Shown: in pieces, positions 2,713-26,380 of the stretch
How the letters are laid out: every line of letters begins with the position of its first letter
Numbering within the stretch: position 1 is the first letter of the stretch
From: Candidatus Saccharimonadota bacterium
Lineage (GTDB): Bacteria > Patescibacteriota > Gracilibacteria > BD1-5 > UBA6164
Assembly (NCBI GenBank): GCA_963677765.1
Contig: OY782392.1
Location: forward strand, 240,001 to 272,000
DNA: 32,000 nt
Direction: 5' to 3'
Notes under the pieces: generated by a model
The model's database searches: none
What the model saw: the letters and a program-made list of their open reading frames with translations, nothing else
What the model was told of the DNA's origin: nothing
Program-made: the position numbers and the translations under genes

Positions 2713-5676
2713 CTATTTTTCTCAAACAGTTATAGCATCTATAGAAAAATCTCATTGATAATTATAACCTGAGACATAATTAATAACTATAAAAGCAGTA
2801 TTACTAGGTAAATCTATATCAGGAGTTTTAGTCCAAGAAGAAGTATAATATGAATGTTGTTGTCCATTAATAGTATATAATGGATTTCATCAATTTAAAA
2901 CATTATTACTAGCATCTCTAGCATAAACACTTACATCTCACATATTAGCTCAATACATATGATAGTAAAAATTTATATAATTTGAATCATCTGTAACATT
3001 ATATATCAATGCTGATGATTTATTAGAAAATCATTTATTATTATCACTAGCCTCTACAAATAAATAAGTATTTCCATCATAAGATCAACTAGGTCAAGTA
3101 TTCCAAGATTTAGTATAACCAGTACTATAATACCAACCATAAGCAGGTCAGTTTTTATTTCTACTTCATATATAAGTCACAGACCAATCTCAAGTATCAT
3201 TTCATTCAAAATTAGTAAAACTTCCTGATGCTTCTTTACATATATTTGTTATATCACCATATCAAGCCAAGTTTTGATCTAATATAGTCCATGTATTACA
3301 TACGCTTGATAAATTTTTCATTCTAATAGAATAAACTTTATCATCTAAACTAATAGTCTTTCAAGCATAAGTATAATTATTTAATACACTCAAATCTTGA
3401 AGACTAGAGTTATTATGTAAATAAAGATTATCTATATTTAAGCTTTGTAATCATGATAAATCAACTACTGAATTGTCTGATAAATCTAGAGTCCTAAGAG
3501 AAGATAAACCTCTATTAAAAACAGTTAAATCATTTACTGAGTTTCAACTAGCATCTAATGACTCTAAACTAGATTTCCATTCAAATCATGATATATCACT
3601 AATGTTATTATCTGAAATATCTACATCAACTATAGACCATTTATCTGTTATTTTTGATATATCACTTAAATTATTATTTGAAACATCTACATATGATAAA
3701 TCACTTGCATTTAATCAGTTAAGATTTGTTAAATTATTATTTGATAAATCAACTCTTACTAATGTCCAAACTGAATTTAATCCTCAAATATCAGTTAAAC
3801 TATTATTTGAAGCATCAAAATTTCAAGCAATTCTTCAAATTTGACTTAATCAGTTAAGATTAGTTAAATTATTATTACTAATATTTAATTCTCATAAAAC
3901 TTCTCTTAACTCATTGAAGTTAGCTAAATCAGAATCAGTTAATCATGCTCAAGAACAATCTATATTTCAGTTATAAGTTCAATTTGTCGAATTAAAATTA
4001 TTATCAAACTCTGTTTCACTTATTCAACACATTGAAACTAATACATTTTTAAAATCAAGATAAGGAGCAAAACTACAAGAAGATCAATCCCATGTATATC
4101 AAGATAAACAAGTATATTTACAAGAGTTAGATTGATTTACAGAACTATATCAAGTAGTAAAACTAGGAGTCCATGAACTTCAATCCCATGTTTGTGTTAT
4201 AGTAGATCAATCCCACCATGTAGATCATGTAGGCAATGTTCAACATGACTCTGTTCTAGTATCTGCTACACATGAACTTCAAACCCAAGAATAATTAGTA
4301 TCACAAGTATATTTACATGCATTTAATTGTTCTGTAGAACTATATCAAGTAGTAAAACTTGGTGTCCATCAACTTCAATCCCAACTTTGTACTATAGTTC
4401 AAGTTCAATCCCACCATATAGCTCAAGTAGGCAATGTTCAACATGATTCAGTTCTTCATCATGCAACACATGAAAATCAATCCCAAGAATAGTTAGTATC
4501 ACATCTATATTTACATGCATTCAATTCTTCTGTAGAACTATATCAAGGAGTAAAACTTGGTGTCCATCAACTTCAATCCCATGTTTGTGTTATAGTAGAT
4601 CAATCCCACCATACTGCTCATGATGGTAATATTCCACAAGCTTCATTTCTAGTAGAAGCTATACATTCATTAGTTGAAGAATTATAATCATAATTATCTT
4701 CACATTTGAACCTACAATCATAAGTACTAGCAGACAAGTTATATTGAGCCTGGTTACTAGGTAAATATTGTCATGAAGTTTCATCCCAATTTTGAGTTAT
4801 GCTAGATTCCGTATTCCATTGAAAATTTGAACTAGGAGCTCATTCACAAGCAACATTATATAAAGTTTGTGCTCATGGTTCACATTCTGATCAATTCCAA
4901 GTAAATCAAGTTTTACATTTAAAATAACAAGGAGAATCTGAATTACTATTTTGCCATGGGGTATTTGATTGAGTTGGAGTATTTATCAAATAATCAGCAT
5001 AAGCATAAGGTTCAGCCTGACATCAATATACATTATCTGCAAAATTATCAACTACATCAGTTATATTGCTAAAAATATCATCTCATGTATTTGAAACTAT
5101 TCTATCATTTCTAAGAAGTACATTAATTAAATCACTATCACCTGTTTCTATATTAAAAGGAGAGCTATATTTTTCTTCTATAGGTACCATTTCACTATCA
5201 AAAAATACTCATACTTCTTTATTTCATACTATGTAAGGAACAAGTCATTCATTATTTTTAACTATAACTTTTTCATATCATAAACTAGTTAGACTAGATT
5301 CATTTTCTAAAAATGTTAAAAGTTGAAAATATTTTCAATCAGCTGATATAGTATAAGTAAAATATCTACCTGTACTAGGATCAACTCATTCCATATTGTA
5401 TTCTATTTTTTCTATAAGGCTAGGTCAAAAATAACCTTGATAAGCTATAGTATCTCAATTATTTTGAATTTCTATAGCTCATTCTGGCATCAAAAAATCA
5501 CCTGAGTTTATTTTTAATGCAACTCAGTCCCTTATATTATTCAATTGAGAAATTCTATTAGAATCTCTTACTCATGATAGATAAGATGTAAAAGATATAA
5601 ATGATATTGTAGCTACAATAGCTATAATAGTCATTACAATTATTAGTTCTATCAAAGTGAATCACTTTTTATTCAT
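2713..5676 (-). CDS. giant modular type IV pilin-like adhesin: prepilin N-terminus + Cys/Trp repeats + LRR array + C-terminal MAM-like domain (987 aa)
   Basis: ATG 5674-5676, TAG 2713-2715; length is divisible by 3 and I met no TAA/TAG in frame. The N-terminus MNKKG|FTLIELIIVMTIIAIVATISF is a class-III signal (G-1, F+1, E+5). It continues with 3 x 65-aa repeats (CGTLPTGAIWWDG..TQ.WDGSGWTPSFTTGYSST..LNACKYTCDTNYSW.G.SC), LRRs (LNISNNNLTNLNGL, VDLSNNNLTNLNGL, VDVSNNNLSDISKI, LDLSDNSVVDLSGL), and MAM-like motifs (GDWSV...GPSGSYDGNTYLFVEAS...FYYHMYGANMGDVSVY...YQGDFSIDAITV). Confidence 0.85.
3376..3942 (-). repeat. leucine-rich repeat array (coding, about 22-24 aa period) inside the 2713..5676 CDS; approximate bounds
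   Basis: Repeated L..L.L.(S/D)NN.(L/I)(T/S)(D/N)(L/I)..(L/I) units in the code-25 translation. The track's 123-aa + strand ORF 3473..3844 is its antisense shadow. Confidence 0.7.
4066..4650 (-). repeat. three tandem about 195-bp (65-aa) Cys/Trp-rich coding repeats
   Basis: The landmark caatcccacc recurs at 4208, 4406 and 4601 (spacing 198 and 195 nt). The three protein units are highly similar and each ends in an EGF-like C-K-Y-x-C-x(3)-Y-x-W-x-G-x-x-C. Confidence 0.8.
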
Positions 5677-5739
5677 AATAAATAGTTATTTTAGTTATAA
5701 ACCATTATATTTTACTACAAACAAGATATAAAAAAAAGA

Positions 5740-5772
5740 AAAACTACTTTACAATCACAGTAAAGTAGTTTT
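5740..5772 (-). terminator. hairpin downstream of the 5776..7434 gene
   Basis: aaaactacttta (5740-5751) pairs with taaagtagtttt (5761-5772), with a 9-nt loop. Lies 4 nt after the stop of the LRR-pilin gene. Confidence 0.6.
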
Positions 5773-5775
5773 AAA

Positions 5776-7434
5776 TTAATCACAAATATGATCAACATTA
5801 GGATAAGAACTTCAATTTTGGTTTCTAATAGTCCAATTATTACAAATATTAGAACTATTATGCATTTTTGTAGTATAGTTTCTAGTATTAATTTGAAAAA
5901 TTCAATTAGTTTGAGTTATTGTTCATAGATAACTTACATTATCTAAAGAATCATTTCATGATAAATTAATATATGTTAAATCTCTCATATCTCTAAGAGC
6001 ATAAGTTGTATTAATATCATTATTCATCAAATTTAAATATTCTAATCAATTAATTCAATATAGTGAATTAATATTTGATATATTATTATTTGCAAGGTTT
6101 AATATTCTTAGAGTATTTCTTCATCAGATAGAAGAAATATCTGTAATATTGTTATCAGACAAATCAAGAGATAATAAATTATTCATACTACTAATAGATG
6201 ATATATTAGTAAGATTATTATCACTAATATCCAAATAATTTATACTATTTAAATTCCTAAGTCATTCTAAGTCAACTAATTGATTTCAAGAAAAATTAAC
6301 ATTAACAAAATTATTAGAAGATCTATTAGATAAAATAGATATATTAGATAAAGAATTATTTTGTATACTAAATAATCAACCTACATATTCTAAGTTACTT
6401 AATGGGTTCAAATTAGTTATGTAATTATTATCTAGAACAAAATTTCAAGTTATTCTTCTAAATCATTGAAATAATAATAAATCATCATCTCTAAGACCTA
6501 TTCAATCACAAATTATATCTCAATTATATTCTCAAGTAGAAGAATTAAAATTAGAGTTAAAAGTTGTTTCTGTTATATTACATTCTCAAGCCAACAAAGA
6601 TGAAATATCAGAGTAATCTATTTCTGGAATAACTCATTCTGGAGCTATTTCACAAAAAAGACCAGTATATCAACTATCACAACTATAACTACAAGAAGCT
6701 CAATTATCAGATTTAACCCAAGATTGATTTACTTCACTAGGAGTTCATTCAAAAAATATAGCATTTGGATAATCAGGTCTAGCCTCACAATAAAATCAAA
6801 CATCTACATAGCAAGGCCATTCAGGATTAATACTTTGATTAGATATAGGTGAAAGCTCCAAACCTGATTCAAAAACTAACTTATATCACTCATCTATAGA
6901 ACAATCGATATTAACATCTCATGAATTAGTTCTATTTATTGGATTATAATCTGAATCAGTAAAAACTCATAAATTATTTTTTCAATAAACATAAGCAAGC
7001 ATAGATTTAGAGTTCAAAAGAAAATTATCTTCATATGTTTTTTTAGGTGCATTTCAAGGTCTTTCCAAAAGAGCTAAAACATCATAATCTTTTTGATTTG
7101 TAGATATATTAACTGTATAAGCTTGTTTTGTAAGTGGATCCTCTCAACTTCAAAAGAATTTTATTTTTTTTAACATATTATCAGATATATCTCATTGACT
7201 AGAATATTTTTCTCAATCAATATAAATATCAACAGAGTTATCTAATCCTAGTTTTTCTTGTCTTGCAAAAGCAAATTCTAATCAGTCTCATATATTTTGA
7301 ACTTGATTAATTCTATTTGTATCCCTAGAATCTTCTAAATAATTAGTATAAGCAACAAATCATATAGTAGATAATATAGTTAAAACCGATATTGTTATTA
7401 ATAACTCAACCAGTGTAAAAGCTTTGTTTTTCAT
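5776..7434 (-). CDS. modular type IV pilin-like LRR protein (552 aa), paralog of 2713..5676 without the MAM domain
   Basis: ATG 7432-7434, TAA 5776-5778. MKNKA|FTLVELLITISVLTILSTIGF is a class-III signal. It continues with an EGF-like Cys module (CSYSCDSGYTGLFC), an LRR N-cap (CNITETTFNSNFNSSTGEYNGDIIC), about 10 LRRs (LDISDNNLTNISSI, LDLSDNNITDISSI, LNLANNNISNINSL) and a C-cap CNNWTIRNQN (compare CNTWTILDQN in the paralog). Confidence 0.85.
5925..6499 (-). repeat. leucine-rich repeat array (coding) inside the 5776..7434 CDS; approximate bounds
   Basis: Periodic L..L.L..N.I..I units in the code-25 translation. Confidence 0.65.
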
Positions 7435-7452
7435 AAATAATATTATTATTTT

Positions 7453-8148
7453 TTAATATCCAACATTTTCCCTAATTCTTTCCAACATAGATTTATCTAC
7501 ATCACTTATATTTTTTGGCATAATAGCTTCTATTTTTACTATCAAGTTACCTTCTTTTCATAATTCTTTTTTTCAAAATCATTTTACTCTAAGTTTTGTT
7601 CAAGGTTTTGTTCATTCGGCTATTTTCACCTTGGCTTTTTGTCAATATACTCAAGTAACTTCAATCTTACATCATAGTATTAAATCAAAAATTGGTACTT
7701 CATAAGTTTTTTCAAAATCAAGAGTTTCTTCTTTTTTAGTAGTATTTTCTTGTCTATAATTTGATCTTTTGTTTCATCACATTCATCATCAGAATATATC
7801 TTCAAAATTAAATTCAAATCATCAAGTTCTAGATCTTTGATTTCATCACATTCATCAGAATATATCTTCAAATCATCAAAATCAAGCTCATCATCAAAAA
7901 GGGTTTCATCATCAAGATCAAAAAGGATTTCATCATGCTTTTCAAAACATATCATATTGTTTTCTTTTTTGATCATCATATAGAGTATCATAAGCCTCCC
8001 CTACTTTTTTAAATTTTTTTTCTGCCTCACTATCTCATTTATTTCTATCTGGATGGTATTCCATAGCTTTTTTCCTATATGCTTTTTTTATCTCTTCTTT
8101 ACTAGCATTTTTTGAAACTCATAATATATCATAATAATTATTTGACAT
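7453..8148 (-). CDS. dnaJ: J-domain co-chaperone (DnaJ/CbpA-like, no zinc finger), 231 aa
   Basis: [69 protein letters not shown] is a canonical J domain with HPD. It is followed by a G/F linker (GGNPFGSGGGNPFGGGAGFGGFEDIFGG...) in which every Gly is a TGA, then a short C-terminal substrate-binding-type domain (KVKIAEGTKPGTKLRVKGFG...GNLIVKIEAIMP). Confidence 0.85.
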
Positions 8149-8206
8149 TTTATTTATTTTGGTTATAAGTTATATAATATATAATTAAAACTAATTCTAT
8201 TAAAAT

Positions 8207-8647
8207 ATGTGAAAAATTACAAGAATTATTCTATCAGTTTTTATATTTTTTTCAATAGCAAATATAGGTTATGCTAACAATTTATCAATAGATAAAACCC
8301 TAGATTTTTACTTTGGATTAGAAGATAGAAAATTAAACTTAGATGAAATAAATAAATATAGTTATAAAGACTATTCAAAAACAAAAATGCTAAATGACTT
8401 CATATATCTTGATTGATTAATGAGATGAGAAATAACAAGATTATATAGAAATGAAGATATAGATTATAACAAAATGAACTGAATTATAAGTAACTATAAT
8501 AAATTTATTTATCATATAAATAAATACTTTTACTATGAGTATTTATCTGAGATATCTAACTATAGCGAGATATCTATTGCAAGTGATAGAAATTTTGAAT
8601 TTGCTAGATGATACTTTCAAAAAACTAAAAATATTATTCGTAGATAA
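8207..8647 (+). CDS. small secreted hypothetical protein (146 aa)
   Basis: ATG 8207, TAA 8645-8647. MGKITRIILSVFIFFSIANIGYA|NN has a signal-peptide-like N-terminus. The protein is rich in Tyr and Asn. No motif recognised. Confidence 0.55.
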
Positions 8648-8650
8648 TAA

Positions 8651-8677
8651 AAAAAGTGATTAAATTAATCACTTTTT
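8651..8677. terminator. bidirectional hairpin between 8207..8647 and the coupling-ATPase gene
   Basis: aaaaagtgatt (8651-8661) pairs with aatcacttttt (8667-8677). The stop of the minus-strand gene (8665-8667) sits at the loop/stem boundary. Confidence 0.6.
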
Positions 8678-11121
8678 TTATTATCTATAGCCTTTTGTTG
8701 TTTAGCTAATTTTTCTTTTTCTTTGAAATCTTGCTTTTTCTTTTCCCAAGCAATTTCTTGTTTATCTAAATCATCTATTGAACTATATATTTTTGACTCA
8801 ACACTTTCTTTTGATTTAGAGTATTTTTCACGAGATACTTGTAGTATTTTTTGATATCTTTTTTTAAATGACTCTTCATTTTTCTTATTTGGAGCAAATG
8901 TAGATGCTGAAAAAACTCAAGAAGGCATTCAATCAATTAATTGTTTTGTATAAATATTATATTTTTTCAAATTCATCAAATCATCTTCATTTATATCTCA
9001 AGCTAAAACTTCTTTCAATATATTTGCATCGTGATATCAAACTTGAAAAGAAACAACAGATCAAACATTACCAAATACTGCTCATCTTACTGATTCTTGC
9101 ATTTGATCAATATATTGATTTGCCATAACAAGGTTTAGTTTATATTTTCTTGCCTCACTAAGAATAGTAGCAAAACTATCAGTAGCAAAGTTTTGAAACT
9201 CATCAACATAAAGATAAAAATCTTGTCTTTCTGATTCTGGAGTATCTGACCTACTCATGGCATCAATTTGAAACTTTGTTACCAACATGGCTCATAATAA
9301 AGCAGAAGCATCTTCTCAAATTTTTCACTTAGAAAGATTAACTATAATAATTTTTTTATTATCCATTGCCCATCTAATATTGAAGCTATTTTTGGGTTGT
9401 CATAATACATTTCTAAGTATTGAACTTGATAAGAATTGTCATACTTTGTTAAGTATAGGTCATACAGCTTCATTTCTTTGATTTGGAGCCATTTTAGCAA
9501 ATTCTCAAGTCCAAAACTTTTTAACCACTGGGTCTTTTATTTTATTTACAACTTTATTTCTATAAACTTCACTAGTAAGCATTAATGGTATAGAAATAAG
9601 TGTAGTATTTGGGTATTCTAATAAAGCTAAAATAGTATTTCTAAGTATATACTCCAACCTTGGTCACCAACTATCTCAAAATATTTTTTTAAATATTCAA
9701 ACTAATCATGAAGCAACCAAAGGTCTAAGTTCAGGGCTCACATTTTCTAGCATATTGAAAGCAATAGGCCAAGAAGTATCACTTGGATCAAAAATAATTG
9801 TTTGATTAGTTCTGCTTTTTGGTATAAATCATATTATAGATTCTGCTAAATCACCATGTGGATCAATTACAGCTACTCCTCTTCATTTTCTAATATCATC
9901 AATTATCATATTTTCCAAAAGAGTAGATTTTCACATTCATGTTTTTCATAAAACATACATATGTCTTCTTCTATCGTTTGGTCATATACCAAAACTCATA
10001 TTAGTTCATCTAAAATTAGTTTTTCAAATTGGAGTTAAATTTGTTTCTGGAACTATATCATCTGTTAAATCAGGATCTATTATTGGCAAATTAGATGGGG
10101 GTTCAAATGCACGAGAAGAAACCCAATTGATTTGTGGAGTTTTAACATAACTAGTAGGTAAATGAACTAATCAAGATAGCTCATTTGTAGATAATATTAT
10201 TGAATTATCTACTTTTCTTTTTTTAGCTCTATATATAGTTTCTTGATCATTATATATTCAATCTAAATCAAATGAATTAAGTCAAAAATATGAAAAAACT
10301 GACAATGTAGAAAATATTTCTCTAATAGTTCATTTTGATTCTACTTTGTCCTCTCAAGCATGTATGATATTTATTGATGTATCATATCAAGATAAACTAA
10401 GTTTATTTTTCATAAAGTTCAATACTGAATCTTTTTCATTATTAACAACTTCTCAATCTTCTGTATCTGCTTTTTTGAAAAATAAATTAATAAACCAGGC
10501 TAATATATAAAATGGGAAAAATAATATTTTAAAATATATATATTTATTACTAAGTAATATTTTTTTTATAAAACTAGGATATTTTGATAAAACTATTTTA
10601 ATTATATTATCTTGATTTTTTTTCCAATTATCATCTTTTAAAGGAGTAAAGTTTATTTGAAAAGTATTCAAAGTATATTTACCTGTTTTTGATAATGCTG
10701 ATGTAATACTAGAAAATGGATCTACTATATCATTACTAGCAGCTTCTTGAAGCTCAGTAAATGTTTTTATAGGATAATAATGATGTTTTGATAATGAAAG
10801 TTTTCATATATGTATTTTTGAATCTGGAATATTTTCCAAATAATCCCCTACTTCTATTATTTCTACATCTGTAAAATGTGCATATATTTGATTTGATAAA
10901 AAGTTGGCATATTTTCTTGGAGATACGATAAAAAACCTGATTCTGTTTCATACCTTTGTTATTTCAAAAGAAAAAGTAGGTTGAGAATCAGTTTTTTTGA
11001 ATATTTTCTTTGTAGAAAAATCTTCAAAAACCTTATGAAGTATAATTAAAATATGCTCAAATACTCATGGTCATTTGAGATTATTTTTATCTACTAGTAT
11101 TTCAAGAACAACTTTATTCAT
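8665..11121 (-). CDS. VirD4/TraD/TraG-like (type IV coupling protein-like, HerA/FtsK-superfamily) membrane ATPase, 818 aa
   Basis: ATG 11119-11121, TAA 8665-8667. Walker A is HMYVLGKTGMGKSTLL (all three G of GKTGMGKS are TGA) and Walker B is FYLYVDEFQNFAT. Also present: ILSEARKYKLNLVMANQYIDQ, typical of TraD/VirD4-like C-terminal modules, a central hydrophobic hairpin (YIYFKILFFPFYILAWFINLFF), and a K/E-rich tail. Confidence 0.75.
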
Positions 11122-11182
11122 ATTATTTTACTAGTTTTTAATATAATTAAATTTTACTATATTTTTACTAATTTATCAAATA

Positions 11183-11629
11183 TTAAAACAAAAACTTTTT
11201 TGCAAAAATTTTATGTAAACTACATTTAACTCTAATTTCAAACTCATCTAAGTCATAATCATCAAAAACAACAACACTATCACTATCTACCGATAAAAAT
11301 TTTTCATCAACTAAATCAGAATATTCATCATATAATCATACCCAAGTTATTCTATGATCATCTCACATTGGATGTGAATTATTTCATATAATAACTTCTA
11401 TAGAGAAATCATCTCTTGATACTTCTATATCATGTTCTAAATCAATTTTATCAACAGTATTTTCATCAATATATGTAACTTCTTCATTGATATGATGAAA
11501 ACTATCATACTCATTACAAACAGGACAAAACTCAAATTGATCAATTTTAGTTCAAGCTTCTATTCAATCTACTTCATCTCATATAGATTCATCATAAACA
11601 TAGTTACAATTAACACATAAATATTTCAT
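11183..11629 (-). CDS. rubredoxin-like domain fused to a superoxide reductase (neelaredoxin/desulfoferrodoxin-type) domain, 148 aa
   Basis: The N-terminus YLCVNCNYVYDES...FEFCPVCNEY has two CxxC knuckles. The C-terminus has LEHDIEV, SHPMGDDHRITWVGLY (HPMxxxHxIxW) and KCSLHKIF (CxxH), which matches the SOR iron-ligand pattern. Confidence 0.65.
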
Positions 11630-11691
11630 TTACTTGATTTTTAAATATAAAAGTTATTATTCATTATAGATTATAATAAAATAAAAAAATA

Positions 11692-12408
11692 ATGAAACAA
11701 TTTTTTGATAAACAAGATTTAGAAAAGCTAAAAAATAATCTAAAACTAAAAAATAATGAAAGCAATATAGAAAAAGAACTATATAATAGAAGTTATAAAT
11801 ACCTAAAATATATAAAGTTTTTACCATGATTATTAATGGTTTGAATATGAAACTCTATAGCTATGAATTGAGCAACAAAAGATAGTGATATAGACCTATT
11901 CATAGTAACTACAAAAAATACTATGTGGTTAAATAGAATAATAATAACTTTTATTTTTAGTATTTTATGAGTTAGAAAAACAGAGAAAAAACACGCAAAA
12001 ATGTTTTGCTTAAGTTTTTTTGCAACTAGTGATGGATTAGATTTTAATGATTGGAAAATAGAAAATGATATATATTTATACTATTGGATACTTACATTCA
12101 AACCAATAATAAATTATAATAAAACTTATGAAAAATTTATTTTCTTAAATGAAAAATGGACATCTCTTGATAAATACAAAGAAAAAATAGAAGAAAATAA
12201 AAAATATATATATTATAGTTGAAATAAAAATATTAACAATAAGTTTTTATGATTTTTTGATAATATAATAAAAAAAATATTCATAAAAAAAACTTATAAA
12301 ACCTACAATAAAATATGAAAACCTTATTGAATAATAATAAATAATAATTTATTAAAATTTCATAATAATGATATTAGAAAAAAGATAAAAAAAGAAATAT
12401 TAGATTAA
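11692..12408 (+). CDS. Pol-beta-superfamily nucleotidyltransferase-domain protein (238 aa)
   Basis: ATG 11692, TAA 12406-12408; frame checked line by line. GNSIAMNGATKDSDIDLFIVT fits the G[GS]-x(9-13)-D-x-[DE] nucleotidyltransferase signature. The remainder was not recognised. Confidence 0.55.
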
Positions 12409-12422
12409 TCTAATATTTCTTT
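12391..12422. terminator. 32-nt perfect palindrome; bidirectional terminator that also encodes both convergent C-termini
   Basis: aaagaaatattagatt|aatctaatatttcttt is centred between 12406 and 12407. The + stop is 12406-12408 and the - stop is 12405-12407. Confidence 0.7.
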
Positions 12423-13733
12423 TTTTAATAGTTTAACTTCAACTTTTCAAATTTTTGCATTATCTATATCCATAATTTTGAAAAGTAACTCTCTTTTATA
12501 TTGAGAATCATCTTCATAGTCCTTTAAAACATTGAACTGTATTTTTTGTCAATTTGAAGGAAATCAATCAAGTACATGAGTAATAACATAACTCAAAGTT
12601 TCTCAATCAAACTCCTTTGAATCCAGTCCTATATCTTCTAAATGTAAGTCATATTTTTCTAATATTTCTTCTATTAGTATATCACTTTCAACTCTATATT
12701 CTTCATTTCAAATTTCTATAAACTCTTCACTCTTTCTATCAGTTTCATCTCTTATTTCTCAGAAAACTTGTTCTATTATATCTTCAATAGTTACAAGTCA
12801 TGATACTCCTCCATATTCATCTATCAAAATAGCTAAAACTTTATATGAGCTTTGGAATGTATCTAGAAGTTTTGAAATAGATTGATTTGAAGGTACTTTT
12901 AAAACTTTTCTTAATTTTAAATCTTTTATAAGTTTTTGAGAATTACCATTTTTATATTCTCTAATAAGATCTTTTCAAGTAATAAAGTAATCTATTTTAT
13001 CAATTGTTTCAGTATAAACTGGTAGTCTAGTATGAGTATGAGTAAGATAATATTCTACAGCTTCTTCAACACTACAATCATCGCTTATAGCATCTATTTT
13101 AACTCTTGGAGTCATTATTTCTTCTACTATAGTTTCATCAAATTGAAGTATAGATTTGATTTTTGTATGTTCATTATCATCTAATCATCATGATTGTTTT
13201 CACATATCTATAAATGATTCTATTTCTTCATCAGTAATCATTTGAACTTTTTGTTTTCATGAAAAAACTTTTATAAGAATTTCCATAAAGACAATTAGAG
13301 GAAAAAGTATAAACATTAATACTTTATATATAGGAGCTACTGTCAAAGAGATTGATGCAGCATTTTTAGTTGCAATACTTTTTGGAATAATTTCTCAAAA
13401 AAGTAAAAGTAAAAATGTTATAACTCATGTTGATATTCATATTGCTGTTGATTCGGCAATTCAAAGTCATCAGTTTCTAGCTATACCTATAGAAATAGAG
13501 GTAGCCAAAGATGCTGTAAAAGTATTAACTAGATTATTTCATATCAATATAGTAATTAATAATCTATCGTTATTTTCTTTTATCTTTTTCAAAGATTTAG
13601 ATCAGTATTTTTTATTTTTTACTAAACTATCAATTTTATGTTCTGCTAAACTCATCAATGCTAATTCCGTTCAAGAGAAAAAAGCTGATAACATAAATAA
13701 AACTATAAAAAGCAATATGAGTAGGGGGTCCAT
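12405..13733 (-). CDS. CNNM/CorC-HlyC family transporter (DUF21 membrane domain + CBS pair + CorC_HlyC), 442 aa
   Basis: [93 protein letters not shown]. This is the classic TlyC/CorB-type layout. Confidence 0.85.
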
Positions 13734-13802
13734 TTTTAAAAAGTATTATAATTAAATTAAGTAGGCGTATTTTATTTATATTTTAGCTTTTGTAAAGAAA
13801 AT

Positions 13803-13832
13803 AAAAGTATGATTTTAAAAAATCATACTTTT
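13803..13832 (-). terminator. hairpin at the end of the minor-pilin operon
   Basis: aaaagtatgatttt (13803-13816) pairs with aaaatcatactttt (13819-13832). It overlaps the first two bases of stop codon 13831-13833. Confidence 0.6.
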
Positions 13833-15498
13833 ATTTATTTCATACCATAATAAAATTTTCTCATATATAGTTTTTTTCTCATCAAACAAGTACATGATTA
13901 ACCATTGTTTCTATGGTAGATGGATAAGAATCGTTTATAGGATTTATATATATTCTTCTTCATATTTCAGTTAAATCTCAACTAGAAGGAACTTCCTCTC
14001 AAATCATTCTTATAGCTAAGTTTTCATTTGCTCTATTTGTAAAATATATAGAATAATCTTTATCTCTAAAATTGAATTCAAACTCATTTCAAGTTTTATA
14101 TGTACTAAGAGATAATGTATTTCAGTTTAGTTGTAAATATCAATAATTTTCACTTAGATTAAAAGTTTCATATACATTTACTGGTAATAGAGTATTTCTT
14201 TCTCTATAAGCATCTCTATCAAATTCAATTATTTTTATATCATAATCAAGAGTACCATCCATTGTAAATAAATCAAATTTTAAATTTCATCTAGTAACAT
14301 CTCATGCTTTTACTGTTTTTATAGGATTATCACTATTAAAGATATTATCATCTATAAATTCATTTGTTAGATAGTTATTCCAATATATATTAAAAAACTC
14401 TTCTTGATTTGGTAATATACTAGAAAAAACTGTCATTCTTGGCAAGACATCATCATCTATAAAATCTCATGGATATGCAACTGATCAAGTTGAACTAGAT
14501 CTATAATCATCTGAGTTCATATTATCATCAATGAAATCATCTCAACCAACTCATGAGCTATCAAAATATAGGTCAGTATTGTCATCGTCGTTAAAAGTTG
14601 TTTCTATATACCATCTTTCTTCCCCTGTTCAACCCCATTCAGATATTTCTACAGATGTTATATTTAAAAACCTATTATATCAATCAGCTTCTATAATTAT
14701 TTTAGTTACTCCTAATCAAGTAGAAAAATATCAATAAGAAAAGTTTTTCTCAACAACACTATCATTTCTAACTCATGATACTGTTGTAACAAGTTCACTA
14801 CCATCTTCTAAAACCAATCTTATAGTTCAGTTATTCCAATAAGTACTAGAATTATTTACTTTTTTATAAATCGTTATTTTTGATAATATTTTAGGAGTAT
14901 TAAAATCCAACGCAAGACTTGGATCAGTTGATTTTTTAGAAAGGTATTGAGTATTATCATTACCATCAAATATTCTATCTGGACTTTGTGTACCACTATT
15001 TCAATCAGTTGTGTTAGTTAAATCTATACTAAGATTTGAATTTCAAATAACTTGTTCATCATAAAAAACTCAGTTATCAATATCTCTTAATTCTCAATTA
15101 TAATAAACTCTAGTATAATCTTGAGTTTCAGGATCAAAGAATAATCTTACTCCCTCTCAATTATACTCAAAATAACAATAAACCGTACCATAGTCATAGT
15201 ACATTTCTGAAGACATTCATTCTTGTCTAACTGTTGTTCAACTCATAGTTATATTAGTTGGACAAGATATAAAATCTGTAAAACCTCATCAGTTTCAATT
15301 ATATTGCCTAACAGATTCTATATTTATGTTTCATTTATCTGTAATCATAGCAAAAACCTCTTCTGCATTTCTTCAGATACTGATATTATTATTCATAATA
15401 TATGTATTATTATAAACAACATATCAAATTATTAGTGCTATATTTATAAGTATAAGAGTATAAACAAAAATACTTGCTCTTTTTTTGTTTGATTTCAC
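13831..15498 (-). CDS. PilX-N-like membrane-anchored protein with a discoidin/galactose-binding-like domain (555 aa); GTG start
   Basis: GTG 15496-15498 directly follows an in-frame TAA; TAA stop at 13831-13833. The N-terminus KSNKKRASIFVYTLILINIALIIGYVVY resembles the PilX-type hydrophobic anchor and has no E5. The central region IFDGNDNTQYLSKKSTDPSLALDFNTPKILSKITIYKK...ITSVEISEWG resembles the F5/8-type-C (CBM32-like) pattern. Confidence 0.6.
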
Positions 15499-15510
15499 TT
15501 TTTAGAAATA

Positions 15511-16149
15511 TTAAAAAACTAAACTATATTCATCAATTATAAGATCATCTAAATAAAAATCTTCAAAATTTTCATCAAATAATGAATCATCATATAGATT
15601 TATTACACTATAATACATGTTTACTGATGCTCAACTTCAAAATGATTCTACTCTAAAATCTTTTGTTCTCAAATCTTGAAAAATCTTATCAAGGAAAAAC
15701 TTTTTATTATATATTTCATCAGGATTATTTCCTATATCTATCATCTCATCTGGAGTCAAATATCTATATCATAAAAAATTATCCCCATATAAATAATTTC
15801 TTTGAATTAGATTAGTATTTATATCTACTATTCAAACAAGTATTCATTCTGATCAATCTAGTTTTTCTAAATACAAAACATTATTTGGATTTTGAGCTCA
15901 TGTATAACCAGGTTCAGTAATTCAACTAAAAACAACTACGTCTGAGTATCATCATCTAATAAATCTTTGCATAACGTCTTTGAACTCAAATCATTGTTCC
16001 ATAGAACTAATTTTTACATCATTTGTCACAAGTTCTTCAACACTATCAGTTATAAAAACAAATATAACAAGAAACAATATACTAGATATAGCTATTGTTG
16101 TTATTAGTTCTACTAGTGTAATAGCTTTATTATTTTTAAAAAATTTCAC
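15511..16149 (-). CDS. minor type IV pilin-like protein (212 aa); GTG start
   Basis: GTG 16147-16149, TAA 15511-15513. KFFKNNKA|ITLVELITTIAISSILFLVIFVF is a class-III signal-like segment (A-1, E+5). Lies 12 nt upstream of the next gene. Confidence 0.65.
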
Positions 16150-16211
16150 AATTACAAAAAATTAATTATATTATTTACTAAATATAATATATATATTAAT
16201 CATTTTGTAAA

Positions 16212-17558
16212 ATGAAAAATAATAAAAGGGCCGACTCTATAGCCTGAATAATAATTGCAGTTTTTATATTGTCTTTTGCTTTAATGGGAATAATAAATGT
16301 TTTGGACTACAATAAAGATGTTACTCTAAATTATGAAAAAGAAACATGAGAATATATACTAAAATCAAATGCTCAAAATATTCTTAAAAATATAGATATT
16401 TCAAAAATAAAACAAGATGAAATTTTTTATATAAATAAAAACAATACTACAAAAGAATATGAAGTTCTAACTTGAGCTACAAATGAAAGATACAAATATA
16501 TAGACATCAATTGAGATAATGTTGATCCTAGTGTAGCTGTATGAAAAACTTTTGAAAGATATTTTCAAAAAAAGATTGATATACTTAGACATGATATAAA
16601 ACCACCTGAAATTGACAATCTAGTATTTCACTTCGATGCAAATAATATAGATGGATATAATAATTCTACTATAAGCAATTGAGATACTGTAAGTGTTTGG
16701 AAAAATCTAGCAAATAACTGAGTTCCAGATGCTGTTGACAAAAACAACATATCAACATTCAGTTCTACATATAGCTCTCAATTACCTACTTATAACAAAG
16801 ATTGATTAAATAATAAACCAATGGTAGAATTTAACTGAGTAGATCAAATGTTAGCTATGGAAGTATCTCCTGAAGTAAGTTCAAACTATTTATCATGTTG
16901 AATAGAACCTATTTTTTTCGAAGAAAAATCATTTGCTATAGTTTTTAAAACATGAGGTGATATAGTAAATAGTCAAATGGTTTATGAACAATGATGAGAT
17001 GCTATTTGATATAATTTTATGATATTTGAATGAGAAGTATGGGCCTGAATTCATAACTATGCAACTTATAATAAATATTGGTGTGCTTGAGATAGAATAC
17101 CATATGAATGGTCTCCTTATAAAAATAGAGCTGTTTATTTATGAGATGTTTTACCAGATACAATTTATTTCGTAATGGTAGTTCATGACAGTACAAATAA
17201 AGATTTATTATGAAATCCTATACCTAGTGATAACAGATTAAAAATATATTTAAATTGAATTCTAGTTAGAGAAGTTGATAATGTAATGCCTCAATGAGAA
17301 CATTTTCACTGATGAATATGAAATATTTTCAATAGAAATGTTAATCCAAAAAATTGAGATTTAATTGATGATTCATGAAGTAATAATGCTGCATATTTTC
17401 AAGGAGGTATATGAGAACTTATTTCACGGAATCATGCACTAACTGAAAATGAAATAAGATGAGTACAAAATTATTTTAGTGAAAAATGGTTATGATGAAC
17501 TTCTAGTATAAGATATGATATAGTAAATACATATATAAACGAATACAAACAATATTAA
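16212..17558 (+). CDS. membrane-anchored LamG/concanavalin-A-like lectin-domain protein (448 aa), probable pilus-associated
   Basis: ATG 16212, TAA 17556-17558. Has an N-terminal hydrophobic anchor (RADSIAGIIIAVFILSFALMGII). The C-terminal motif AAYFQGGIGELISRNHALTENEIRGVQNYFSEKW is typical of bacterial Laminin_G_3 domains. Lies 20 nt upstream of a pilin gene. Confidence 0.6.
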
Positions 17559-17578
17559 AAATTAAACAAAAACAAAAT

Positions 17579-18385
17579 ATGAAAAAAAATTATAATTGAT
17601 TTTCTTTTGTCGAACTAATAGTAAGTGTAGCTATTTTAGCAGTAATAAGTACTATATGATTTATATCATATAGTAGCTACCTTTGAGATTCTAGAGATTC
17701 TCAAAGAAAATCTGATTTAGCACAAGTATGATCTGCACTAAAAGTATACAAACAAAAGAGATGATACTATCCAGATCCATGAAATGATTTTTCTATAACT
17801 CATTTTTGAGAAGAAGTTGCAAAACAAGGTAAATTTGACCAATGAGTTAGATTAAATACATTAGACAAACTACCAATGGACCCAAAAAATCAAGTAGCAT
17901 ATCAATATTCTATAACTAGAAATGGACAAGAATACGAAATGGTAGCAACTTTAGAAAACGAAGATAGCCCTATAGCATTATTGAATGGTACATATAAAAC
18001 AGCATCTGTAAATGTATTGCCTTCAATAAGCCTTGCTATATCAAGAGAAACAACTCAAACTGCTGAAATAGCAATATGACAAACAGATAGTGAATGAATA
18101 GACTGAAGTGAAAATAGAAACAGATTTATATTTGATTCTCAAGACCATAACCTTGCTTATACATTTGAAGAACCATATAATCACAAATCAGACTGAACTG
18201 ATTTAGATACAATAATTGCTGATTTAAGAACAAAAAATCTATTTTGGCAAAATACAGATTTTAGAAATTGTGCAGAGATTAAAGAATCTTGAAAAAATTT
18301 AAAACCTGATAATAGATCAACTCAATATCAAGTTATAGATAGTACAACTTGAGATTTAAGAAATGAAAATTGTATTTTTAACTAA
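17579..18385 (+). CDS. type IV pilin / GspG-like pseudopilin (268 aa)
   Basis: MKKNYNG|FSFVELIVSVAILAVISTIGFISYSSYLGDSRDSQRKSDLAQVGSALKVY, then ...LPMDPKNQVAYQYSITRNGQEYEMVATLEN. A C-terminal Cys pair (NCAEI...NENC) is present. 14 of 17 Gly codons are TGA (hand count). Confidence 0.85.
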
Positions 18386-18419
18386 AAAAATAAGTAGAGA
18401 ATTCTCTACTTATTTTTTT
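18384..18419. terminator. 36-nt perfect palindrome between the pilin gene and hisS
   Basis: aaaaaaataagtagagaa|ttctctacttattttttt. The pilin stop is at the left edge and the hisS stop (18410-18412) lies inside the right arm. Confidence 0.65.
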
Positions 18420-25741: not shown

Positions 25742-26380
25742 ATGAGAAATACAAATAAAGCCTTTACTTTGGTTGAGCTTATCGTAGTTATTACTATATT
25801 AGCTATACTTGGTACAATAGCTTTTATATCTTTACAAGGATATACTGGTGAAGCTAAAAACTCTAAAGTTACTTCTGACTTAAGAAACATTGCTTCTGCA
25901 ATTGAAACTTCATCTACTAGAAATAGTGTTTTATTAGCTGATGTATTACTAGCTAATACAAATGTTTCATCAAATAATGCAGTTGATGTAACATCAACTT
26001 TTTGACCAAAAAATATAGCATTAAATAATACTGCTTCTGGAGTTACTTATGCTGTTGGTAATGTTGATTTTGCTGCAGTAGAACAAAATGGTGAAGATTT
26101 TAAAGATCCTAATGGTATAAAACCAGGTACTACTGATGAACAAGCTGATTATATTTTTGCTATGGTTACATCTCCTGATTTTAAAGCTTACCAATTAGCT
26201 GGTCAAATTATCGAAAATGATATTAAAAAATCAAGAGTTAATGGTACATTCTATACAGCTTCAGGTACAACAGCAAATGGTTTAATATCAGCTGCATCTG
26301 ATACTGCTAACAATGAATTAATTAATGGTGATCCAATAATTTGAACTACACCTACTCTTCCTGATTTATATAACAACTAA
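25742..26380 (+). CDS. type IV pilin, candidate major pilin (212 aa)
   Basis: MRNTNKA|FTLVELIVVITILAILGTIAFISLQGYTGEAKNSKVTSDLRNIASAIE. It has its own promoter region and a strong terminator. Only 2 of 15 Gly codons are TGA (hand count) and GC is visibly higher than in neighbouring genes. The track splits it into two ORFs at TGA 26006. Confidence 0.85.

Follow-up and report, generated by a model that had tools for sequence, protein, structure and literature searches.

The 32,000-nucleotide stretch of DNA analyzed here (the window) holds a monoderm-type type IV pilus (T4P) locus with genes for PilB, PilC, PilT, and a probable major pilin; of the six accessory pilin-like proteins, four bear sugar- or protein-binding domains. 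The reading that we favor, with moderate confidence, is that the locus specifies a retractile monoderm-type T4P equipped with a lectin-grafted four-protein minor-pilin set plus two stalked LRR pilins. We regard it as a richly equipped case of modular pilins, a strategy that is already known, and not as a new kind of system.

Genetic code, pilus machinery, and probable major pilin

The source is an uncultured, UGA-recoded member of Candidatus Gracilibacteria that uses code 25 (TGA = Gly). Only seven ORFs of at least 80 aa were present under table 11, and the window was tiled by long ORFs once TGA was read as a sense codon. Glycine was assigned on the basis of the FtsZ signature (GLGxGTGTxAAPV, where x is TGA), the x-rich G/F region of DnaJ, and a Walker A motif (GPTGSxKS). 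The genetic code, gene models, domain identities, conservation, and synteny were established directly. Translation with table 25, as the preliminary description of this DNA had advised, yielded all seven of its pilin-like genes as open ORFs at the positions it gave (987, 552, 555, 212, 448, 268, and 212 aa). Its five genes with a prepilin motif were likewise recovered: the pattern [GA][FI][TS][LF][VI]EL matched exactly five times in six frames (shuffled mean of 0.005), each time 4 to 8 residues past the start of a long ORF. Pfam N_methyl exceeded its cutoff of 21.2 bits in the 987-aa (34.2), 552-aa (24.7), and 268-aa (26.1) proteins and the probable major pilin (32.2) and was marginal (21.0) in the other 212-aa protein; TIGR02532 passed in four proteins.

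The + strand encodes the PilB extension ATPase (21169-22395; T2SSE, 398 bits), a SpoIIE/PP2C phosphatase (22410-24311; SpoIIE, 124 bits), and the PilC platform protein (24326-25543; two T2SSF matches, 164 bits). The machinery order PilC-SpoIIE-PilB is kept in the related locus L001, and L090 has SpoIIE-PilB up to where that locus ends. A 361-aa PilT-type retraction ATPase lacking an N-terminal extension is encoded on the - strand (26441..27526; T2SSE, 150 bits). Between PilC and PilT lies the gene for the probable major pilin (25742..26380, + strand; 212 aa), which has the leader KA/FTLVEL (here and below, the slash follows the putative -1 residue). TGA made up 13% of the Gly codons in this gene, whereas its share in the remaining six pilin-like genes was 76 to 87%; this bias is consistent with high expression and with the assignment of this protein as major pilin and of the others as minor. 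The motifs, the N_methyl matches, and PilB/PilC/PilT bear out the view that pilin or pilin-like proteins are encoded in a T4P locus. No prepilin peptidase and no PilMNO were found in the window, and no PilY1 homolog was recognized among the proteins scanned; PilD is reported to be widespread in CPR (PMC6744442). A J-domain (DnaJ-like) protein with an HPD motif and a G/F region is encoded at 7453..8148 (- strand), immediately upstream of the 552-aa pilin gene and in the same direction. The gene in this position encodes a 260-aa protein with no Pfam match in L001 and a PF00226 DnaJ protein in L005.

Two LRR pilins on Cys-repeat stalks

The gene at 2713..5676 (- strand) encodes a 987-aa modular type IV pilin with the leader MNKKG/FTLIEL. 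The protein comprises a pilin module of ~215 aa (nt 5032-5676), a stalk of five ~65-aa four-Cys repeats delimited on the repeat map and matching no Pfam family (nt 3952-5031), an internalin-type LRR domain made up of approximately nine 22-aa repeats and a Cys cap (nt 3172-3951), and a MAM domain (nt 2716-3171). This architecture recurs in seven of eight orthologs. TIGR02532 and internalin-like LRR models were matched, and the pilin-module profile matched ~20 solved T4 pilins via alpha1. The 552-aa modular type IV pilin (5776..7434, - strand; leader MKNKA/FTLVEL) has a pilin module followed by a single Cys repeat and a Cys-capped LRR domain. It is a paralog of the 987-aa pilin, with ~30% identity in the aligned pilin modules, and has orthologs in L004 and L005. 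The LRR+MAM and LRR modules named in the preliminary description all scored above Pfam thresholds, with LRR_4 at 40.9 bits in the 987-aa pilin, LRR_8 at 48 and LRR_4 at 36 bits in the 552-aa pilin (LRR cutoff, 27), and MAM at 30.8 bits over residues 847-984 (cutoff, 26.4). The pilin modules were the best-conserved parts of these large pilins (55-60% identity, dN/dS of 0.11), and in the closest 987-aa ortholog pair the MAM head was the fastest-evolving segment (dN/dS of 0.41 versus 0.08-0.19 elsewhere, from that one pair and with a value below 1). A terminator-like hairpin lies between the two genes (5772-5740), which appear to be separate transcription units. Both proteins thus have major-pilin-like Glu5 modules from which disulfide-rich repeats extend as a stalk for LRR (±MAM) heads of protein-binding type. 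On our favored reading, they would be built into the pilus either in the tip region or here and there along its length.

A four-protein minor-pilin set with two lectins

Four further genes form two divergent pairs, encoding the 448- and 268-aa proteins on the + strand (16212..17558 and 17579..18385) and the 212- and 555-aa proteins on the - strand (15511..16149 and 13831..15498). The 62 bp between the pairs (16150..16211) presumably form a bidirectional promoter region; promoter-like hexamers are present on both strands, with site counts at chance level in AT-rich DNA. A terminator-like hairpin (18383-18420) marks the end of the 268-aa gene. The four-gene set is kept in L001, L089, and L090, the last with the co-directional order 147->202->895, and the comparative loci indicated core sizes of ~250, 147, 205, and 390 aa for the 268-, 448-, 212-, and 555-aa proteins, respectively. 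Sequence comparison thus identifies these as a conserved four-protein minor-pilin set, which most likely acts as one complex.

Two members are canonical. The 212-aa protein occupies a J-like position (KA/ITLVEL, Glu5, GTG start), and its gene sits 12 nt upstream of that for the 555-aa protein; the orthologs L089_203 and L090_202 are also encoded directly upstream of the K-like gene, and L090_202 passes N_methyl at 25.4 bits. The H/G-like 268-aa pilin (leader NG/FSFVEL) has a GspG-like module (T2SSG, 18.5 bits; gspG model, E = 1e-7) and a C-terminal extension that ends in a Cys-Cys loop, and its orthologs in L089 and L090 are 41-44% identical. The I-like 448-aa protein (KRA/DSIAG) and the K-like, capping-type 555-aa protein (a basic leader ending in A, KRA/SIFVY) lack Glu5 and an N_methyl match, and neither has significant profile similarity to canonical pilin modules, GspI/J/K, or PilX_N. 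Because such similarity is absent, their assignment as pilin-like draws on how they are predicted to fold, how their N termini are built, and which genes surround them. The atypical N termini had been recognized in the preliminary description, but no profile supports its term PilX-like. Both families keep [AG] at the putative -1 position, the site being conserved as [AG]/S[IV]F[VI][YFH] in the 555-aa family, and their N-terminal helices are among the best-conserved segments.

Structures were predicted for homologs 53-61% identical to the window proteins, which they represent here. In the 448-aa protein a small pilin-like domain (aa 1 to ~130) is followed by a predicted ConA/LamG-like lectin beta-sandwich (aa ~130-448; nt 16599-17555). 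The window sequence itself had no Pfam LamG match. The protein has 42 full-length homologs. For the homolog P0005 (61% identical), the model (pLDDT of 81) shows a helix at 10-60, then a small sheet, and a beta-sandwich domain. Its best PDB match was the Streptococcus sanguinis lectin pilin PilC (7oa8, E = 3e-9; also 7oa7), followed by BoNT Hc and CBM40; the global TM to PilC was low (0.32-0.37) because the inter-domain orientation differs. The 320-aa L089 ortholog passes Laminin_G_3 (34.9 versus a cutoff of 27.6), and the 147-aa L090 ortholog has no lectin module. The LamG/ConA-like module proposed earlier is therefore confirmed at the fold level, as modeled for a close homolog.

The 555-aa protein has a long N-terminal helix and a conserved core in two parts (aa 1-140 and 300-555), with a discoidin/F-lectin/CBM32-like insert at ~aa 150-300 (nt 14599-15051). 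Discoidin scored below threshold in the window sequence (19.3 versus a cutoff of 28.2). The profile of the family (34 full-length homologs) matched fucolectin 2j1r (E = 7.8e-4), and the model of P0047 (53% identical; pLDDT of 77.6) matched the lectinolysin lectin domain and CBM32 with TM values of 0.75-0.81 and rmsd of 2.2-2.4 Å; model comparison assigned no fold to the family core. The close-homolog model thus confirms the fold of the anticipated discoidin module, which lies internally and not, as had been described, at the C terminus. The insert is the most variable segment of the family and is missing from P0074/P0075 and most of the 287 family clusters. Among the top 146 representatives, 68 measure 330-430 aa, and those listed align in two stretches (profile 1-145 and ~295-557). 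These comparisons identify the domain as an optional insertion; in relatives the core carries other decorations (Fib_succ_major, Cys repeats).

We suggest that this set is the counterpart, by analogy, of the HIJK priming/tip complex and of PilABC in S. sanguinis. Of its four subunits, two are canonical pilins with Glu5, one is small and non-canonical, and the fourth is large, lacks Glu5, and is of the capping type. Two lectins have been grafted onto this core in the present lineage, the ConA/LamG-like one by fusion to the small subunit and the discoidin/F-lectin by insertion into the large one. Pili grow from the base, so the complex would stand at the distal tip and would present both lectins to target-cell glycans, after which PilT retraction could draw the cell up against its host or prey. 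Since their carriers belong to one conserved set, the lectins are probably displayed together and not alternated. In this proposal we infer that PilD processes the proteins, that they enter pili, that they lie at the tip, that they form a complex, and what they bind.

The same proteins might instead be displayed without pili, their class III-type N termini merely anchoring or exporting large adhesins, or form a short pseudopilus; they would then resemble archaeal "bindosome" sugar-binding proteins or T2SS pseudopilins, outside long retractile fibers. We consider this unlikely. Four proteins do far exceed structural-pilin size, two lack Glu5 and an N_methyl match, incorporation into fibers is presumed, and elaborate adhesive surfaces are known on CPR cells (PMC8080830). 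However, the genes are syntenic with PilB/PilC/PilT and the major pilin across genomes, the large pilin modules are conserved beyond the needs of an anchor, and the non-canonical N-terminal helices are conserved in sequence beyond mere hydrophobicity. Furthermore, the modular pilins PilB and PilC have been located experimentally in pili (PMC8179133, PMC9934059).

Module exchange and comparison with known systems

Module swapping across related genomes, a check suggested in the preliminary description, was evident. At the position of the 987-aa pilin, L005 encodes a 1072-aa pilin with a DUF5122 beta-propeller in place of LRR+MAM; in related genomes a Cys repeat is replaced by TSP1, and the discoidin insert and the LamG module are each present or absent. 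Modules are thus grafted and lost between lineages, and the heads evolve faster. It had also been proposed that the modules are interchangeable tips, each pilus bearing one of several heads chosen combinatorially within a cell or population. The 987- and 552-aa pilins would suit such a scheme as paralogs with similar pilin modules, different heads, and apparently separate transcription; L001 has no 552-type ortholog between its J-domain and 977-aa genes, and heads differ between lineages. Within one cell, the proposal was not supported and is quite unlikely: no shufflon-like repeats or inversion/recombination sites were found, no recombinase was recognized among the window genes scanned, and every module is fixed in a conserved, syntenic family of full-length orthologs (42 and 34 homologs for the lectin carriers, and seven of eight orthologs for the 987-aa pilin). 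Moreover, the lectin carriers belong to the conserved four-protein set, whose genes overlap or adjoin one another, and this implies that the proteins are used jointly. We conclude that the modules are swapped over evolutionary time and fixed within a genome, no switching mechanism having been found. Truly interchangeable pilus-tip adhesins are those of the R64 shufflon, in which PilV is altered by site-specific DNA inversion within one gene; what the two have in common is the concept of a pilin whose C-terminal recognition segment comes in alternative forms and sets partner specificity, but no such repeats were found here and no recombinase was recognized among the window genes scanned.

The closest parallel to the favored tip complex in architecture may be S. 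sanguinis PilA-PilB-PilC (PilB-vWA, PilC-lectin; 7oa7/7oa8; PMC8179133, PMC9934059), likewise from a monoderm T4P whose minor pilins carry grafted adhesion modules. As in PilC, the modeled homolog of the 448-aa protein joins a short pilin moiety to a ConA-like lectin, and in both systems a partner subunit lacks Glu5 and two different binding modules are predicted on one tip. In contrast, no sequence homology is detectable, the lectin-bearing subunit is itself non-canonical and Glu5-less (PilC is canonical), and the second module is a discoidin domain placed within the large capping subunit, where S. sanguinis has a C-terminally fused vWA. The S. sanguinis set has three proteins, whereas the core here numbers four, and two stalked LRR pilins come in addition. 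As in HIJK (GspH-I-J-K; FimU-PilV-PilW-PilX), four minor pilins are encoded together beside the assembly machinery, with a small, medium, large gene order (here seen in L090). The largest subunit resembles GspK and ComZ in lacking Glu5 and having a domain inserted in its globular part, although that domain is a lectin (discoidin) here, an alpha-domain in GspK, and a beta-solenoid in ComZ. Unlike HIJK, a second subunit also lacks Glu5, and no member tested matched T2SSI, T2SSJ, T2SSK, or PilX_N in Pfam/NCBIfam.

The statement that module-bearing pilins are known from a few Gram-positive systems was too narrow, as more than 1,200 modular pilins with 264 architectures have been catalogued, many of them from CPR including Gracilibacteria (PMC8179133), and in Saccharibacteria minor pilins of lectin-like and beta-propeller type have been the subject of experiments (PMC11623550). 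Both LRR pilins (987 and 552 aa) fit the definition used in the InterPro catalogue (Raynaud et al. 2021, Dataset S1; PMC8179133), an N-terminal IPR012902 plus a domain that is not T4P-specific. The catalogue lists IPR012902-LRR (IPR001611), IPR012902-discoidin (IPR000421), and PF13385 architectures but not the MAM (IPR000998) architecture found in the 987-aa pilin; the 448- and 555-aa proteins would escape its screen because they lack a recognizable IPR012902 motif.

CPR T4P have repeatedly been proposed to import host DNA (PMC8080830, PMC11452946, PMC6744442), and the pilus might serve competence, with the large K-like subunit binding DNA like Thermus ComZ, itself a minor pilin into which a large domain is inserted (PMC8179133), and the carbohydrate-type domains being secondary. 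RecO adjoins the locus, but ComEA and ComEC are absent from the window, and the grafted domains are of lectin, LRR, and MAM types without known DNA binders. In TM7x, T4P-2 pilin mutants kept normal competence, whereas efficient binding to the host required PilX2, the minor pilin with a propeller (PMC11623550). DNA uptake and adhesion could coexist, and we judge the competence reading very unlikely. TM7x PilX1 and PilX2 are also large minor pilins with accessory domains (beta-jelly-roll lectin-like and beta-propeller) from a CPR lineage, PilX2 has a non-canonical signal peptide, and glycan and host binding are their proposed roles (PMC11623550). The phylum and genetic code differ, and that study reports no LRR, MAM, or discoidin domains and no Cys-repeat stalks for PilX1/PilX2. 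The 1072-aa L005 pilin ends in a beta-propeller and so recalls TM7x PilX2, a likeness of architecture.

Genetic code and prepilin signatures

With translation table 11, only seven ORFs of ≥80 aa were found in the 32-kb window, and long ORFs tiled it when TGA was read as sense. Codes with TAG or TAA as sense did not restore the ORFs and were rejected. Judged from conserved protein motifs, TGA must encode glycine in the window (code 25), because it stands at the positions marked x in the tubulin signature of FtsZ (GLGxGTGTxAAPV) and in a Walker A motif (GPTGSxKS) and builds the G/F region of a DnaJ protein. The GC content of the window was 22-28%, and the named close homologs of the 448- and 555-aa proteins discussed below were all from Candidatus Gracilibacteria. 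The preliminary description had delimited seven pilin-like genes, each of which was open under code 25 with exactly the coordinates and length proposed: 987 aa (2713..5676, - strand), 552 aa (5776..7434, -), 555 aa (13831..15498, -), 212 aa (15511..16149, -), 448 aa (16212..17558, +), 268 aa (17579..18385, +), and a second protein of 212 aa (25742..26380, +).

Public copies of these proteins (database homologs P0001, P0043, P0077, P0080, and most of the P00xx series) are mostly code-4 translations with Trp at every TGA, amounting to 6-10% Trp; P0001 is the same as the 448-aa protein of the window but for 30 Gly-to-Trp changes. Code-4 mistranslation (Trp for Gly) suppresses domain detection. 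Few of the mistranslated copies have any precomputed Pfam annotation, and such pilins are therefore probably under-counted in catalogues. The proportion of Gly residues encoded by TGA was 80-100% in most window genes, 76-87% in six of the pilin-like genes, and 13% (2/15 codons) in the 212-aa pilin at 25742-26380. The proportions for probably well-expressed genes were 0.44 (FtsZ), 0.50 (NusA), and 0.52 (PilT). Highly expressed genes seem to avoid the recoded TGA, and the share of Gly codons that it makes up may therefore be usable as a proxy for expression in code-25 genomes. On the basis of this codon bias, the low TGA share identifies 25742..26380 as the putative major pilin, with the other pilin-like proteins as putative low-abundance subunits.

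Prepilins were recognised by a short basic leader ending in Gly or Ala, followed by a hydrophobic α1N segment with Glu at +5 (PF07963/TIGR02532). The motif [GA][FI][TS][LF][VI]EL, which the preliminary description had seen in five genes, proved specific: it occurs five times across the six frames, each time 4-8 residues into a long ORF, compared to a mean of 0.005 in shuffles. The class III signature was present in the 987-, 552-, and 268-aa proteins and in both 212-aa proteins. Pfam N_methyl scores (cutoff 21.2 bits) were 34.2 bits for the 987-aa protein, 24.7 for the 552-aa protein, 26.1 for the 268-aa protein, and 32.2 for 25742..26380. The 212-aa protein of 15511..16149 was marginal (21.0 vs 21.2 bits), and its ortholog in the compared locus L090 scored above the cutoff (25.4 bits). 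TIGR02532 was above threshold in four window proteins.

The 448- and 555-aa proteins matched neither N_methyl nor TIGR02532 and failed the Glu5 test, with Gly at +5 in the 448-aa family and Tyr, Phe, or His in the 555-aa family. Both noncanonical families possess a conserved basic leader ending in Ala or Gly at -1, followed by strongly conserved helix residues, with site consensus sequences of [AG]|[DE][ST][IL][AVI]G (448 family) and [AG]|S[IV]F[VI][YFH] (555 family). The putative +1 residue of the 448 family is strictly acidic (33 Asp, 9 Glu) ahead of the Gly at +5, an unusual variant of the prepilin N terminus for which cleavage is only putative. Pilins that do not have Glu5 exist, including GspK, PilX, and Streptococcus sanguinis PilA (PMC9934059); the missing Glu5 therefore weakens the case for membership of the 448- and 555-aa proteins and leaves a pilin role possible.

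The pilin fold was defined as a long N-terminal α-helix packed on an antiparallel β-sheet. A model of P0005, a homolog 61% identical to the 448-aa protein (pLDDT 81), contains a 51-residue helix (residues 10-60), a small sheet of three to four strands, and a large β-sandwich. The model of P0047, 53% identical to the 555-aa protein (pLDDT 77.6), begins with a helix of ∼60 residues, and its core could be assigned to no fold. The profile of the pilin module of the 987- and 552-aa proteins matched ∼20 solved type IV pilins, through α1 only. Comparisons by hhalign of the 448 and 555 families with the canonical pilin-module alignment, and with each other, were not significant (probability of ∼3% or less). 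A profile scan of genome contigs with the generic prepilin motif only returned mostly ordinary pilins of 130-200 aa from many phyla. Long prepilin-motif ORFs in that scan were found in L008 (635 aa, a code-25 Patescibacteria MAG), L028 (679 aa, a MAG labelled uncultured Gammaproteobacteria), L057 (733 aa, a Bacilli MAG), and L060 (584 aa, an Oscillospiraceae MAG).

Stalked pilins with leucine-rich repeats

The pilin modules of the 987- and 552-aa proteins, of ∼200 aa each, are paralogous (roughly 30% identity) and are also related to the 268-aa pilin. In the 987-aa protein the module is followed by five four-Cys repeats of ∼65 aa, about nine LRRs, and a MAM domain. For the Cys-rich repeat there was no Pfam match; >100 nonpilin lipoproteins carry similar repeats. 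Within the 987-aa gene, three tandem coding repeats of 195 nt (4009-4596, - strand) correspond to Cys stalk units, and two of the copies are 87% identical at the DNA level. The LRR units are of 22 residues (LxxLxLxxNxL), and the closest NCBIfam models are those of internalins. Both proteins are modular pilins with every module above its Pfam cutoff: N_methyl, LRR_4 (40.9 bits), and MAM in the 987-aa protein, and N_methyl, LRR_8 (48 bits), and LRR_4 (36 bits) in the 552-aa protein (PF12799/PF13855, cutoff 27). The MAM match (PF00629, 30.8 vs 26.4 bits) spans residues 847-984 and profile positions 20-152 of 158; a weak MAM match was also present in the ortholog from L001, a syntenic locus.

The 987-aa architecture is kept in seven of eight orthologs. 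At the syntenic position in L005, the gene still encodes the pilin module and the stalk, with 45% identity over residues 1-537, and its product ends in a DUF5122 β-propeller (303 bits). This ortholog possesses about 8 stalk units vs 5 in the protein of the window, which suggests that stalk length varies by repeat gain and loss. The neighbouring 564-aa protein of L005 carries a TSP1 repeat in place of the Cys repeat found in the 552-aa pilin. A family-specific DNA pattern scan of metagenomes yielded L086 as its sole new locus. For this closest pair (window vs L086, 91% identical), dN/dS values were 0.11 for the pilin module, 0.19 for the stalk, 0.08 for the LRR region, and 0.41 for MAM, and the dN of MAM was six-fold that of the pilin module. 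At deeper divergence, the LRR region is the least conserved part of the 987-aa family.

Shufflon-like switching was rejected because the repeats detected were either imperfect AT-rich ones of chance origin or in-frame coding repeats, and no site-specific recombinase was recognised among the scanned window genes. With the modules also fixed in conserved orthologs, the earlier proposal of interchangeable pilus tips is supported over evolutionary time and is not supported in the sense of a switch within one cell.

More than 1,200 modular pilins in 264 architectures have been catalogued, with CPR bacteria prominent and an example from Gracilibacteria illustrated; the catalogue covers LRR, discoidin, and PF13385 architectures, and MAM is not listed (PMC8179133). 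The LRR+MAM combination on a Cys stalk is an incremental addition, as is the richness of the set, in which six accessory subunits bear four modules.

Lectin modules and the four-protein set

The discoidin family PF00754 scored 19.3 bits in the 555-aa protein, under the cutoff of 28.2, and matched 4 of 32 members of its family (best E of 5.6e-6). The profile of the 555 family retrieved fucolectin chains from the PDB (E = 7.8e-4), and the AlphaFold model of the 53%-identical homolog superposed on the lectin domain of lectinolysin and on CBM32 (TM 0.75-0.81, rmsd 2.2-2.4 Å). In the homolog model this domain has a fold of the discoidin type, and the window protein itself is sub-threshold by sequence. 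The discoidin module of the preliminary description was upheld as a fold on the homolog model, but it is internal (about residues 150-300) rather than terminal. This segment is the least conserved of the family, with column identities of 0.22-0.39 vs 0.5-0.78 in the flanks. An acidic cluster (DDNMNSDDYR...DFIDDD) lies at residues ∼321-350 of the 555-aa protein, with D324, D325, S329, D330, Y332, S336, and D348-350 invariant in 32 sequences. It maps to a low-confidence loop of the homolog model and might be a candidate metal- or Ca-binding site where the insert meets the core.

The 448-aa protein of the window matched no Pfam family, Laminin_G_3 (PF13385) included, and a precomputed PF13385 match was present in 1 of its 42 homologs. 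The ortholog L089_320 scored 34.9 vs 27.6 bits for Laminin_G_3, its lectin part giving no BLAST alignment to the window protein. Single-sequence and profile searches of PDB sequences with the 448-aa family returned nothing, so that the match came by fold search only: the homolog model had S. sanguinis PilC, a lectin-bearing minor pilin, as its best match (7oa8, E = 3e-9), with clostridial neurotoxin (BoNT) Hc and CBM40 lectin domains next. On this modelling evidence, the 448-aa family has a predicted ConA/LamG-like lectin fold. All four binding modules named in the preliminary description were recovered, LRR and MAM above Pfam thresholds and discoidin and LamG by fold on homolog models.

Full-length homologs numbered 42 for the 448-aa protein and 34 for the 555-aa protein. 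The set formed by these two proteins, the 268-aa pilin, and the 212-aa protein of 15511..16149 is conserved in L001, L089, and L090. The whole L001 locus (GCA_028691535.1) is syntenic (PilC-SpoIIE-PilB-x-HisRS-268-474-214-554-CNNM-...-ATPase-...-977, the last being N_methyl/LRR/MAM). L089 encodes proteins of 268 and 320 aa (Laminin_G_3) on one strand and of 203 then 405 aa on the other. In L090, genes for proteins of 147, 202, and 895 aa are consecutive and overlapping or adjacent, and a 248-aa N_methyl pilin is encoded near PilB. As judged by BLAST alignment, these counterparts are orthologous in every case. Identity to the 268-aa pilin of the window is 41-44% for the 268-aa protein of L089 and the 248-aa protein of L090, and the counterparts of 203 and 202 aa share 26-28% identity with the 212-aa minor pilin. 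Alignments with the 555-aa protein cover its residues 1-135 and 291-555 for both the 405- and the 895-aa ortholog, neither of which has the discoidin segment. The 147-aa protein of L090 aligns to residues 1-112 of the 448-aa protein with 44% identity and contains no lectin module.

An exhaustive HMM search with the 555 family found 287 representative clusters. Among the best 146 of these 287 representatives, 68 were of 330-430 aa, 9 were at the length of the discoidin form, and 18 exceeded 600 aa. The listed 330-430-aa representatives matched the profile in two stretches (positions 1-145 and about 295-557), and several of those >600 aa consisted of the core followed by a C-terminal extension, such as Fib_succ_major in the database protein P0232. 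By these alignments, discoidin is an insertion missing from most members of the family.

The set comprises four co-encoded subunits in a small-medium-large gene order, with a largest subunit that lacks Glu5 and carries an inserted domain, and with a small Glu5-less subunit. In these features it resembles two complexes, HIJK and S. sanguinis PilABC, that initiate pilus assembly and come to lie at the tip (PMC9934059). No Pfam match to T2SSI, T2SSJ, T2SSK, or PilX_N was found at E ≤ 1 in the window proteins, the 32 members of the 555 family, or the small core orthologs, and the earlier label of PilX-like for the 555-aa protein had no profile support in that protein or in those 32 members. The analogy supports a set that works like the HIJK or GspK-PilX tip minor pilins; the likeness is functional rather than one of family membership, because no family profile matched and the hhalign comparisons were not significant.

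Cultivated Saccharibacteria possess a lectin-like minor pilin, PilX1, and a β-propeller minor pilin with a noncanonical signal peptide, PilX2, and the latter is required for efficient host binding (PMC11623550). In the literature consulted on Gracilibacteria, pili receive generic mention only (PMC11452946) and no isolate is reported. A further incremental addition is a widespread four-protein core with an optional lectin insertion or fusion, in these lineages, many of which look UGA-recoded. It would add a third lineage, a recoded one, to those of the S. sanguinis and Saccharibacteria models. A conserved core that, depending on the lineage, has lectin modules inserted into it, fused to it, or missing amounts to a natural experiment in the gain of tip specificity. 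If contact with a host or prey cell is made through these heads, the hosts could be revealed with recombinant forms of the discoidin, LamG, LRR, and MAM modules.

Pilus machinery and neighbouring genes

Beside the cluster are genes for PilB (T2SSE, 398 bits), a SpoIIE phosphatase, PilC (two T2SSF matches), the 212-aa pilin of 25742..26380, and PilT. PilD and PilMNO were not found within the window; PilD is reportedly widespread in CPR bacteria (PMC6744442). The SpoIIE/PP2C phosphatase (22410-24311, + strand; 633 aa with a long coiled-coil N terminus) lies between PilB and PilC, as it does in L001, and is beside PilB in L090. It may link phosphorylation to pilus assembly.

In the mechanism that we propose, the four minor-pilin-like proteins would form a priming complex to which PilB and PilC add the polymerising major pilin. 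The fibre grows at its base, so that this complex would cap it and present the ConA-like and discoidin-type lectins together. The stalked pilins would add protein-binding LRR heads, with or without MAM, at or near the tip, and retraction by PilT would pull the cell onto its partner. Less likely rival readings are a display of the proteins at the cell surface that involves no fibres, tips that alternate, and a pilus for competence. A broader reading, which we advance tentatively and consider rather unlikely, is that the pilus tip is a multivalent recognition device on a lineage-wide four-protein scaffold, an unrecognised family of at least 287 clusters whose sources look largely UGA-recoded. 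Lectin, LRR, MAM, propeller, and Fib_succ heads would be grafted, inserted, lost, and swapped on this scaffold, and specificity for a host or prey would lie in the combination of heads, which would also drive host shifts. If true, the heads would be usable as molecular probes for the hosts of these uncultured bacteria.

Several further genes accompany the pilin clusters. A small J-domain protein (7453-8148, - strand), with an HPD motif and a G/F region almost wholly encoded by TGA, is directly upstream of the large pilin genes and co-directional with them; its position is occupied in L001 (260 aa, no Pfam match) and in L005 (PF00226, DnaJ). An 818-aa ATPase (8665-11121, -) with matches to DUF87, TrwB_AAD_bind, and TraG-D_C, and to DUF8128 as well in orthologs, resembles a type IV secretion coupling protein and keeps its place between the two pilin clusters in L001, L005, and L089. 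Two proteins matched no Pfam family: a highly acidic 378-aa protein with a single TM helix, encoded just upstream of PilB (19897-21033, +) where L001 has a 345-aa gene, and a secreted protein of 289 aa, anchored by a C-terminal TM segment, adjoining PilT (27632-28501, -).

Promoter scans gave matches at chance level in this 24% GC DNA. The pilin transcription units have perfect or near-perfect hairpins at their 3' ends (2676-2712, 5740-5772, 13799-13836, and 18383-18420). One of these lies between the genes of the 552- and 987-aa proteins; another, a perfect palindrome of 19 bp, separates the 268-aa gene from that for HisRS. The hairpins are likely (bidirectional) terminators.
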